From: a virus
Length of the DNA stretch: 6,052 nt
IMG/VR virus record: IMGVR_UViG_3300020030_000055
Span: 1 to 6,052 of that record
Strand: one strand, 5' to 3'
Below, in pieces: positions 2,164 to 6,052 of this stretch (positions are counted from its first letter, which is position 1; each line of letters starts with the position of its first letter). A program made the translations under genes and the position numbers. The notes below the pieces were generated by a model. The model was given only the letters and a program-made list of their open reading frames with translations, did no database searches and had not been told where the DNA came from.

Positions 2164-2197
2164 AAAAAAAACCTGCAGGAGGTTTTCCTCCCGCAGG
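2164..2197 (-). terminator. Rho-independent (intrinsic) terminator on the coding (minus) strand
   Basis: The minus strand reads CCTGCGGGAGG-AAAA-CCTCCTGCAGG followed directly by TTTTTTTT. That is an 11-bp GC-rich stem, a 4-nt loop and a U8 tail (stem 2172-2197, A-run 2164-2171 on the plus strand). The single imperfect position is a G.U wobble on the minus-strand transcript but an A.C mismatch on the plus strand, so the structure favours the coding strand. Confidence 0.8.
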
Positions 2198-2206
2198 GTT
2201 AACAAA

Positions 2207-2281
2207 TTAGAGGACTCTTCCACCAAGCGGGCGGGTAACAATCTTAGTTCCCTTTCCCTTCTTCTTTCGTCGTGCCTTCAT
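2207..2281 (-). CDS. Candidate small, highly basic peptide (24 aa, MKARRKKKGKGTKIVTRPLGGRVL). Possible J/VP8-like DNA-binding packaging protein, overlapping the 3' end of the 107-aa gene in the +1 frame.
   Basis: ATG at 2281-2279 and stop TAA at 2209-2207, 9 nt before the terminator stem. 9 of 24 residues are K/R, with several G/P, which is a composition like phiX174 J. Caveat: the region is purine-rich (GAAGAAGG..), which yields E-rich and K-rich frames at the same time, so this may be a by-product. Confidence 0.25.
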   Translation of the reverse strand: MKARRKKKGKGTKIVTRPLGGRVL

Positions 2282-2567
2282 CGTCGCTAAGATTAAATTC
2301 AAATACAAGAACGATCGTATTATCGAAGAACTCGATGCTGAAACAAGGAAGATCACCGCAGGAGGCGATAAGATTAGTAATTTCCGAATGATCGATGTAA
2401 AGCGAATCACTAATATGTGAACTCCTCAGAAACTCTGCGATGGGAAGATCGGAGACAACGCTAAAAGGAAGAGATTCGAATTGGCGATCGTTGAGACGGC
2501 CTACCTGAACGAGGTCGATTTTGAGAGCCGGACTAACCCGGCGAATGACAACATGAATCTGTGACAT
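2244..2567 (-). CDS. Hypothetical acidic protein, 107 aa (net charge about -9, acidic tail SDDEGTTKEEGKGN). Function unknown; scaffold-like or accessory.
   Basis: ATG at 2567-2565 and TAA at 2246-2244. It is the second ORF of the block bounded by the candidate promoter (2925-2955) and the terminator (2164-2197), and starts 11 nt after the previous stop. I recognise no motif. Confidence 0.7.
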   Translation of the reverse strand: MSQIHVVIRRVSPALKIDLVQVGRLNDRQFESLPFSVVSDLPIAEFLRSSHISDSLYIDHSEITNLIASCGDLPCFSIEFFDNTIVLVFEFNLSDDEGTTKEEGKGN

Positions 2568-4347: not shown

Positions 4348-4650
4348 CTACATGTGAGTTAAATTATTAGAACGAATAATGTAATCAACGCGAACTGTGT
4401 CGATATGAACGCCACTACGCTGCATTCTGGCTTGGGCCGAACACGAAGCGAGGAAGAAGGCGGCCAATGCAGCAATGATGGACGAAACGAGCGTCCAAAA
4501 AGCCTTCGACTTGTAAAAAGGCTGTTTAGTATCAGGCATGGTAGTAAAATTTAAAGAACGATAGAAAAATGCGCGACCTCTCCCGCAGTCGTTACCAATA
4601 ACCTCAAGCAATTCACGCACTCTTGCAAGAGGGGTTCGCGCACGTAGCAT
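4348..4650 (-). CDS. Small membrane protein with a lipoprotein-type signal (lipobox LAS|C). 100 aa from ATG 4650, or a 63-aa prolipoprotein from ATG 4539 giving a 31-aa mature peptide.
   Basis: Verified translation from ATG 4539-4537: MPDTKQPFYKSK-AFWTLVSSIIAALAAFFLAS-CSAQARMQRSGVHIDTVRVDYIIRSNNLTHM. It shows a positively charged n-region, a hydrophobic h-region and an L-A-S-C lipobox ([LVI][ASTVI][GAS]C). The stop TAG (4350-4348) lies 1 nt before the VP2 ATG. This is the only long open frame in this non-overlapping slot. The upstream 37 codons (from ATG 4650-4648) are Arg-rich and GC-rich, and their coding status is uncertain. Confidence 0.6.
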   Translation of the reverse strand: MLRARTPLARVRELLEVIGNDCGRGRAFFYRSLNFTTMPDTKQPFYKSKAFWTLVSSIIAALAAFFLASCSAQARMQRSGVHIDTVRVDYIIRSNNLTHM

Positions 4651-4981: not shown

Positions 4982-6052
4982 TTAGCGATTAGACAAACGG
5001 GTCGCAAAGGTTTTATTAATAAGACTCTTCTTTTGTACCGAGTAGGACATATTCACAAAGAAATTATCCTCCACTTTAGAGAAAAAAGGAGAGTTAACCT
5101 GCGCCATATCAGTAAAAAGTATCGGATAGTAGTAAGATTCGGGCAGGGAGCCAGTACCACTGGAGGTCATAACAGCACGCTGTTGGATCCAATAGGCGTA
5201 AAGAGGAATACCAGAGCCTCCTTCAGCGGCGCTTTTATGATAGGCTTGGAGTTGACCAAGAGCCTCGTCATAAGAGGAGCGAAACTCATTAAAGCATGGC
5301 TCGGTAGCAAAACTACTGCCAGGATTAGCATTAAACGCTATACGAAAGCTCGGGATGTCCTGATAACCAATATCATTGTAAATGGGATTGAAGTAATCTG
5401 AGCCCATATAATTAAGATAGTCCGGCTTAATGAAACTCCAGTAGTAAACAGGCCTAATGCTCAACATATCAATCATGTAGCCAGGCTCGCGGAAATAATA
5501 AGACTGACGACGGCCGAGGCGATCGTTAAAGGCTATAGCACCACCTTGCTGGCCAAGAGGCGGCAGACTGTAAGTATCTCCTTCAAAGTTGTTCGCACCT
5601 GATTGATTCATAATAATCTGAACGTTAATCGTCTGCGAGGCGGAAAATAAAAGCTTCGGCCTATCGACATGTTCGATTTTTGAAGCAAAAAAAGTCTCCA
5701 ACCAATCGCTATAACGAGAACCTCCAGCGCCAAGCAAGTCTTTATACTCCTGAAGACGAGAGGCAATAGCCAACTGCGGGATAGTATTAACACCCGACAT
5801 GGAAACGGCCGAAGTCGAACCTACGGGGATAAGACGACTAAACCGGTCGGGATTCGAGGGTATAACGGCCATTGGGTGCGCCACTAAAAAATAAGCCAAA
5901 GCTGAAGCGGCGGTAGAACTGGTAGTGGGAAGGGTTTGCGAAATAATACCTTTAGAACCAAGCAAATTCGAGTCCGGATAGGCAGTAGCAACAGGGTAGC
6001 CATCGGTGGAGGCGCTGCCACTCTTTAAATCAGAACGGATAATCTGAAAAAA
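4982..6052 (-). CDS. VP1: Major capsid protein VP1, 3' portion (open at the right window edge; 5932-6052 duplicates 1-121); stop TAA at 4984-4982
   Basis: The track ORF 4982..5965 begins at an internal TTG, and the frame stays open upstream to 6052. Segments resemble conserved blocks of Microviridae capsid proteins as I recall them: RLQEYKDLLGAGGSRYSDWLETFF (cf. the ..GG.RY.E...FG block), FREPGYMIDMLSIRPVYYW, and EPCFNEFRSSYDEALG. The combined length of 602 aa suits the larger (Alpavirinae-like) VP1 proteins. Confidence 0.93.
   Translation of the reverse strand, partial: FFQIIRSDLKSGSASTDGYPVATAYPDSNLLGSKGIISQTLPTTSSTAASALAYFLVAHPMAVIPSNPDRFSRLIPVGSTSAVSMSGVNTIPQLAIASRLQEYKDLLGAGGSRYSDWLETFFASKIEHVDRPKLLFSASQTINVQIIMNQSGANNFEGDTYSLPPLGQQGGAIAFNDRLGRRQSYYFREPGYMIDMLSIRPVYYWSFIKPDYLNYMGSDYFNPIYNDIGYQDIPSFRIAFNANPGSSFATEPCFNEFRSSYDEALGQLQAYHKSAAEGGSGIPLYAYWIQQRAVMTSSGTGSLPESYYYPILFTDMAQVNSPFFSKVEDNFFVNMSYSVQKKSLINKTFATRLSNR
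5932..6052. repeat. Terminal redundancy, copy 2 (identical to 1..121); assembly overlap of a circular genome
   Basis: Same comparison as copy 1: 121/121 identical. The repeat lies inside the capsid ORF and keeps its reading frame. Confidence 0.95.

Follow-up and report, generated by a model that had tools for sequence, protein, structure and literature searches.

A conserved 24-codon gene overprinted on the acidic tail of a microvirus protein, a probable counterpart of the J/VP8 DNA-packaging peptides

Does the reading frame that runs in the +1 frame through the end of a 107-codon microvirus gene, beyond its stop codon and up to a terminator-like hairpin, encode a protein, and if so, which part of the frame is real and what might its product do? 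Microviruses are among the most abundant phages of the gut, yet most of their lineages are represented by metagenomes only and many of their genes are unnamed. Small basic DNA-binding peptides of the J/VP8 kind, which are core components of the virion, are missed by gene callers. The locus considered here lies in a window of 6,052 nt, by which is meant the whole stretch of DNA that was analysed. This window represents a complete circular microvirus genome of ~5.9 kb in a circularly permuted record, the two ends of which repeat each other (positions 1-97 and 5936-6028) and divide the VP1 capsid gene between them. The minus strand carries all genes of the window, in the order VP1, two genes of ~100 aa, the VP2 pilot protein (4346-2979), a ~106-aa gene (2899-2579), an acidic 107-aa gene (2567-2244) that hosts the overlap discussed below, a hairpin with a T-run, a 66-aa gene and Rep/VP4 (1954-863). 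An earlier note, made from the letters of this DNA, had described a 67-aa minus-strand product that is read from a GTG at 2410 to 2207 in the +1 frame relative to the 107-aa gene, and had pointed to an in-frame ATG at 2281 that opens its last 24 codons. The coordinates, frame and translation of the long reading all check out and the ATG is present. The note had likened the hydrophobic head of this product to lysis protein E of phiX174 and its basic tail to J and VP8, and these two halves of the proposal met with opposite outcomes.

The nearest GenBank records to the window are unclassified Microviridae from the faeces of pig, musk deer, civet and rodent. The same accessions are placed in "Family 18" in the supplement of Kirchberger et al. 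2022, with Alistipes (Bacteroidales) as the predicted host; in the accessible parts of that publication VP8 is annotated by jackhmmer in some families, and no corresponding statement on Family 18 was found there. A tblastn search with the 107-aa protein returned 14 GenBank relatives with identities of 32-52%. In total, 18 GenBank relatives were examined, comprising 13 with a homologue of the 107-aa protein and five siblings (Dulem virus 225, MG945564, bajarodmic virus 608, bajarodmic virus 416 and MG945170) that share other regions with the window and possess no detectable 107-aa homologue.

The 24-codon ORF (2207..2281, minus strand) begins with the ATG at 2281-2279 and ends with a TAA at 2209-2207, which sits 37 nt beyond the stop codon of the main frame. 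Its product, MKARRKKKGKGTKIVTRPLGGRVL, a candidate DNA-binding and packaging peptide of the J/VP8 type, is a peptide of 24 aa and 2,679 Da (2.68 kDa), with a pI of 12.0 and a net charge of +10 that reflect ten K/R residues and a complete absence of D/E. In all 13 of the examined GenBank relatives with a 107-aa homologue (32-52% identical), an ATG-started ORF of 23-26 codons occupies the same +1 frame, the consensus of the GenBank peptides being M-[KS]-x-R-[RK]-K-K-K...G...V-V-x-R-P-[LV]-G-G-x-V-L-stop. The ORF is likewise intact in four closer IMG/VR relatives, with the same outcome in 80 further IMG/VR loci, and it is preserved in 94/94 related loci that reach past the gene, a count that leaves aside four loci cut off by a contig edge. 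When the C-terminus of the peptide was back-translated into a DNA pattern, at least 114 IMG/VR stretches were matched, and the 80 matches listed all lie on contigs of 4.4-6.3 kb. In each of the five siblings that lack a detectable 107-aa homologue, the coding strand holds a single small basic ORF of this type. In four of them it shares 32-35 nt with the upstream gene, in the part that encodes an acidic tail and again in the +1 frame. In the fifth, bajarodmic virus 416 (PQ006533.1), the peptide gene MSKKKSRRRGRRVITRPLLGPVL (4427-4515) stands alone, 17 nt past the upstream stop codon and in another frame relation to the upstream gene, and is preceded by a T-rich leader with a T8 tract; this arrangement may represent the ancestral, non-overprinted state. 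No record among the 18 GenBank relatives annotates the peptide ORF, a collection of 15 billion predicted proteins contained none of the three exact variants of the peptide that were looked up, and a literature search found no paper on this peptide in this lineage.

Whether the ORF is maintained for its product can be read from the pattern of variation among 83 unique, gap-free relatives. Across codons 2-95 of the 107-aa gene, nucleotide diversity at the three main-frame positions is 0.33/0.18/0.48, a normal coding pattern. This periodicity flips at precisely the position of the ATG, codon 96, from which point main-frame positions 2 and 3, equivalent to alternative-frame positions 1 and 2, are near-invariant and position 1 is variable. 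Expressed by alternative-frame position, the overlap has a diversity of 0.07/0.04/0.37 and the stretch past the main-frame stop one of 0.065/0.033/0.37; the periodicity disappears directly behind the alternative stop, where diversity is uniform at ~0.6. Constraint, in other words, moves to the alternative frame at the ATG and lasts to the alternative stop. The peptide has a pN/pS ratio (Nei-Gojobori) of 0.10, compared with 0.38 in the 107-aa host gene; within the overlap the ratio is 2.7 for the main frame (last 11 codons) and 0.09 for the alternative frame, whilst the +1 frame of codons 2-95, used as a control, gives 0.88. On a tree built from the non-overlapping part only, changes counted by parsimony within the peptide ORF are distributed 51/35/292 over its own codon positions (binomial P 2e-68 against equal shares), such that 77% fall at alternative-frame third positions. 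The ATG shows no change in the 83 sequences, whilst the main-frame codon lying over it, NAT, varies between D, H, N and Y. The same 83 sequences contain 64 distinct main-frame tails and 28 distinct peptides, and a strongly basic, acid-free composition is maintained in 28/28 of the latter. Conservation of the 24-codon part overwhelmingly exceeds chance and, judged by these substitution patterns, the ORF at 2281-2207 is a real protein-coding gene under strong purifying selection.

This gene shares 38 nt with its host (2244..2281, minus strand), over which the basic head of the peptide is read in the +1 frame and codons 96-107 and the stop codon of the 107-aa gene, encoding the acidic tail, in the main frame. 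The host gene (2244..2567, minus strand) was modelled with AlphaFold2 as a compact alpha/beta domain (mean pLDDT 86.5), in which residues 97-104 of the tail are predicted to be disordered (pLDDT <50). Foldseek found no PDB match to this model at an E value of 0.001 or better; the best PDB structural match, GFRP (E 0.065, TM 0.33), was judged to be noise. Matches in BFVD were confined to uncharacterised Microviridae proteins, including one of the marine 'Microvirus mar42'. From its model, the 107-aa protein appears to represent a widespread microvirus protein family with no assigned role. The earlier note had compared the locus with phiX174, where J follows the scaffold gene and precedes a terminator; the terminator-like hairpin is indeed present, whereas the scaffold label is unsupported, the fold of the 107-aa protein matching nothing other than these uncharacterised proteins. 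In the arrangement proposed here, the overlap would be confined to the tail of the 107-aa protein, which is acidic and disordered, and the sequence of that tail would be a by-product of the peptide frame, with AAG and AAA read as GAA one base earlier. A modest twist is that the host sequence overprinted by the gene is a disordered acidic tail and that selection acts on the overprinting, younger-looking frame in place of the host frame, which makes the locus a clean case of this kind of overprinting. A more elaborate proposal, in which the overlap goes beyond mere compression of the genome and has a function, the acidic tail serving as a built-in mimic of DNA or as a chaperone and holding the peptide, or filling the interior of the procapsid, until displaced by the genome, is considered distinctly unlikely; were it true, the 107-aa tail and the peptide would constitute a charge-complementary, co-encoded assembly switch.

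To which class of protein might such a peptide belong? Peptides of the J/VP8 type are 25-40 aa long, and other Bacteroidetes microviruses are described as having no apparent J/VP8 (Krupovic & Forterre 2011; PMC3091885). The cryo-EM study of SpV4 reports structural conservation across microviruses for the C-terminal four residues of J/VP8 alone, which lie buried in a hydrophobic capsid-protein pocket, with the basic N-terminal part contacting DNA (PMC11281519). The C-terminus of the window peptide (...TRPLGGRVL) was compared with reference J and VP8 proteins taken from GenBank records, namely phiX174 J (38 aa; ...ARLWYVGGQQF), G4 J (25 aa; ...ARLWYVGGTQY), SpV4 VP8 (...NPRGGRRF), Chp2 ORF8 (...MRGGIRF) and EC6098 VP8 (...MRGGIRL). 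In a joint alignment of 23 sequences, Gly at -4 is the sole invariant column, and all of the aligned sequences consist of a basic head followed by an x-G-G-x-x-hydrophobic carboxyl end, with three siblings possessing L-G at -5/-4 in place of G-G. At 24 aa the peptide is close in size to the members of the J/VP8 class (~25-45 aa), G4 J having 25; its composition is basic, it ends in the G-G-x-x-hydrophobic anchor (GGRVL), a shared motif that is short, and its gene is conserved on the coding strand beside morphogenesis genes. Significant similarity to a described J/VP8 family was not detected. Pfam and PHROG scans of the 24-aa peptide with E values up to 10 gave no match, nor did a PDB sequence search, and an hhalign comparison with J/VP8 yielded a non-significant probability of 5.5%, in a setting where short, low-complexity sequences afford little statistical power.

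The resemblance to the J proteins of the Bullavirinae extends to the tiny size, the K/R-rich and acid-free N-terminal part, a pI of 11-12 and the hydrophobic-G-G-x-x-hydrophobic end (LGGRVL here, VGGTQY in G4 and VGGQQF in phiX174). The gene also lies at the end of a unit of small genes and is followed by a terminator hairpin, as phiX174 J is followed by TJ, although the analogy with the phiX174 D-J unit goes no further than position. On the assumption of 60 copies, borrowed from phiX174, the positive charge supplied per nucleotide amounts to 0.10 here, compared with 0.075 in G4 and 0.13 in phiX174. Unlike J, however, the peptide has an aliphatic V-L end, not an aromatic one, lacks an LWY segment and shows no significant similarity; its gene overlaps its neighbour by 38 nt, whereas in the GenBank annotations position 848 is both the end of phiX174 D and the start of J, and G4 J begins 33 nt after E; and the gene that comes next is not the coat gene. 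The VP8 proteins of the Gokushovirinae, Arg/Lys-rich DNA-binding proteins observed within the capsid, are similarly basic with an x-G-G-x-x-hydrophobic end, the Leu terminus being the same as in EC6098, and the Chp2 genes VP3-ORF8-ORF4 present small morphogenesis-side genes, peptide and Rep in the same order as here. In contrast, VP8 is 38-44 aa long and Arg-rich, where the present peptide has 24 aa and is Lys-rich, the VP8 genes compared are annotated as stand-alone, and homology between them and the peptide is undetectable.

The ORF at 2281-2207 is an independent gene and most likely encodes the counterpart of phiX174/G4 J and gokushovirus VP8. The J/VP8-like basic tail of the earlier note has held up, with purifying selection in its own frame, a matching size, charge and C-terminal end, and, in 99% of relatives, a hairpin behind it. 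That the peptide binds DNA, is part of the virion and is anchored to the capsid is inferred by analogy with the characterised proteins. In this scheme, the peptide would be translated from its own ATG, which falls within the final 12 codons of the host gene and is read in its +1 frame. Its K/R-rich N-terminal half would bind and neutralise the single-stranded genome at packaging, the conserved C-terminal R-P-L-G-G-x-V-L would anchor it to the inside of the capsid protein VP1, in a hydrophobic pocket, and the hairpin terminator would close the unit behind the gene. Peptides of this kind are an already known and expected component of microviruses, and the finding leaves the accepted picture of how microviruses work unchanged. 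Its recognition would complete the structural gene set of the Bacteroidota-associated "Family 18" lineage and provides a simple search rule, in which a basic head is combined with a G-G-x-x-hydrophobic end and the frame often lies +1 to that of an acidic tail. A more modest version of the unlikely assembly-switch proposal takes the G-G-x-x-hydrophobic carboxyl end as a universal anchor, which could be used to find 'missing' J/VP8 genes hidden in overlapping frames in other microvirus families.

The alternative that survives best accepts that the peptide is real and translated and denies it a role as a DNA-binding component of the virion, casting it instead as a regulatory or leader peptide, a cationic, membrane-active helper of lysis or a non-structural single-stranded DNA chaperone in replication. 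Composition, position and a short C-terminal motif are the sole basis on which the function was assigned, the profile comparison with J/VP8 falls short of significance, and an ORF that ends 9 nt before a terminator hairpin has a layout common to attenuation leaders. Against this, leader peptides are seldom conserved in amino acid sequence beside such divergent neighbours, as this one is (pN/pS 0.10), and its invariant end, R-P-x-[GL]-G-x-V-L with a G-G-x-x-hydrophobic terminus, matches the structurally characterised anchors of J/VP8. An amphipathic or hydrophobic segment, moreover, is lacking. A search for a competing DNA-binding peptide found no other small basic ORF on the coding strand, which leaves the genome without another candidate for the DNA-binding peptide of microviruses and gokushoviruses. 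A non-virion role is therefore regarded as unlikely, and a J/VP8-type packaging peptide is the preferred reading.

A second alternative holds that the basic sequence is not an independent product and is instead appended to the 107-aa protein as a C-terminal extension by programmed +1 ribosomal frameshifting. The two frames share a strand and, in most relatives, overlap, and slippage is conceivable on the purine-rich run CGA AAG AAG AAG GGA AAG within the overlap. However, the ATG is unchanged throughout the 83 sequences beneath a main-frame residue that changes freely, and purifying selection begins exactly at it. In ten relatives, an alternative-frame stop codon stands two codons before the ATG. 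The siblings bear on the same point, in that the coexistence of one stand-alone copy, 17 nt past the upstream stop and in another frame relation, with four overlapping copies argues for an independently initiated gene and not a frameshift extension. Frameshifting is accordingly rated as very unlikely.

If the gene is initiated independently, signals for initiation might be sought in front of the ATG. No Shine-Dalgarno motif is found upstream of it, and the same is true of the other genes of the window. Such an absence is expected for a Bacteroidota host. Present instead is an A/T-rich stretch 4-25 nt upstream of the ATG (2285..2306, minus strand), a candidate initiation region of the Bacteroidota type, and across the 83 relatives the 22 nt upstream of the ATG have a mean A+T content of 0.74 versus 0.57 for the gene. 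Initiation at the ATG at 2281 is inferred, and the A/T-rich stretch would serve it. Within this region, the third positions of the TTT codons for F89 and F91 of the 107-aa gene (2293-2301, minus strand), 15-20 nt upstream of the ATG, have a diversity of 0.05 and 0.09, compared with 0.37-0.52 at the third positions of the other Phe codons of that gene. These near-invariant positions may form part of the initiation region of the peptide.

A third alternative is the long form itself, a 67-aa protein from the GTG at 2410 that joins a Pro-containing hydrophobic head, like that of lysis protein E, to the basic tail. Lysis protein E of phiX174 is overprinted in gene D. The parallel consists of a same-strand, +1-frame ORF within a small gene on the morphogenesis side and of a hydrophobic, Pro-containing N-terminal stretch, the latter in this genome alone, and the frame is open over all 67 codons in the window and in its closest relative. 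Unlike E, however, the head (2282..2410, minus strand) shows no conserved ORF, no conserved start, no selection in its own frame and no family match. The 43 codons from the GTG to the ATG are free of stops in 35/83 relatives and interrupted in 48/83, a start codon occupies the place of the GTG in 11/83, and a start together with an open frame is found in only 6/83. Besides the stop two codons upstream of the ATG in ten relatives, 22 have one ten codons upstream. Changes in 2282-2410 are distributed 174/734/387 by alternative-frame position, falling mostly at main-frame third positions and so tracking the 107-aa frame, in keeping with the control pN/pS of the +1 frame, whilst Pfam and PHROG scans of the 67-aa product with E values up to 10 gave no match. 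Since the 43-codon stretch is stop-free in as many as 35/83 relatives without any sign of selection, an open frame there is unremarkable. The caution attached to the original proposal, that +1 frames tend to be hydrophobic by default, proved well founded: in a beta-rich protein, T at second codon positions is expected to make this frame hydrophobic, and the head is best described as a chance open frame, not a conserved coding one. The E-like part of the proposal is therefore not supported, and a 67-aa protein is extremely unlikely.

That the conservation reflects not coding but an element acting as nucleic acid, for instance a terminator, a signal for packaging or the structure of an origin, might be suggested by a DNA identity of ~79% here, where the surrounding gene is far more diverged, and by the structured element directly downstream, yet the strict three-base periodicity of the substitutions rules out a purely nucleic-acid element as its cause, and conservation ends at the stop codon, beyond which the hairpin region varies freely.

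The structured element itself is the strongest terminator-like site in the window and begins 9 nt past the stop codon of the peptide gene, as had been claimed. It comprises a hairpin of 11 bp, eight of them G-C pairs, with a 4-nt loop (stem 2197-2172), followed by a T8 tract (2164..2197 in all, minus strand). A fold at this place is a general feature of the relatives: the 80 nt past the peptide stop fold with z < -2 in 99% of the 83, with a mean MFE of -31.8 kcal/mol versus -15.5 inside the gene, and the sequence of the fold differs among lineages. In many relatives (L001-L009 and many IMG/VR loci; e.g. L001:1062-1140), the hairpin and T-run are replaced by a longer, Y-shaped, GC-rich fold that contains ...GGCCACCGCGAAGCGGTAAGG... 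and GAA-looped mini-hairpins and is without a clear T-run. This Y-shaped fold might be more than a terminator, for example an origin for the complementary strand.

Elsewhere in the window, a small ORF at 4348-4650 on the minus strand encodes a signal-peptide-like hydrophobic stretch with a lipobox-like LASC motif (...AALAAFFLASCSAQ...), features that mark its product as a candidate lipoprotein.
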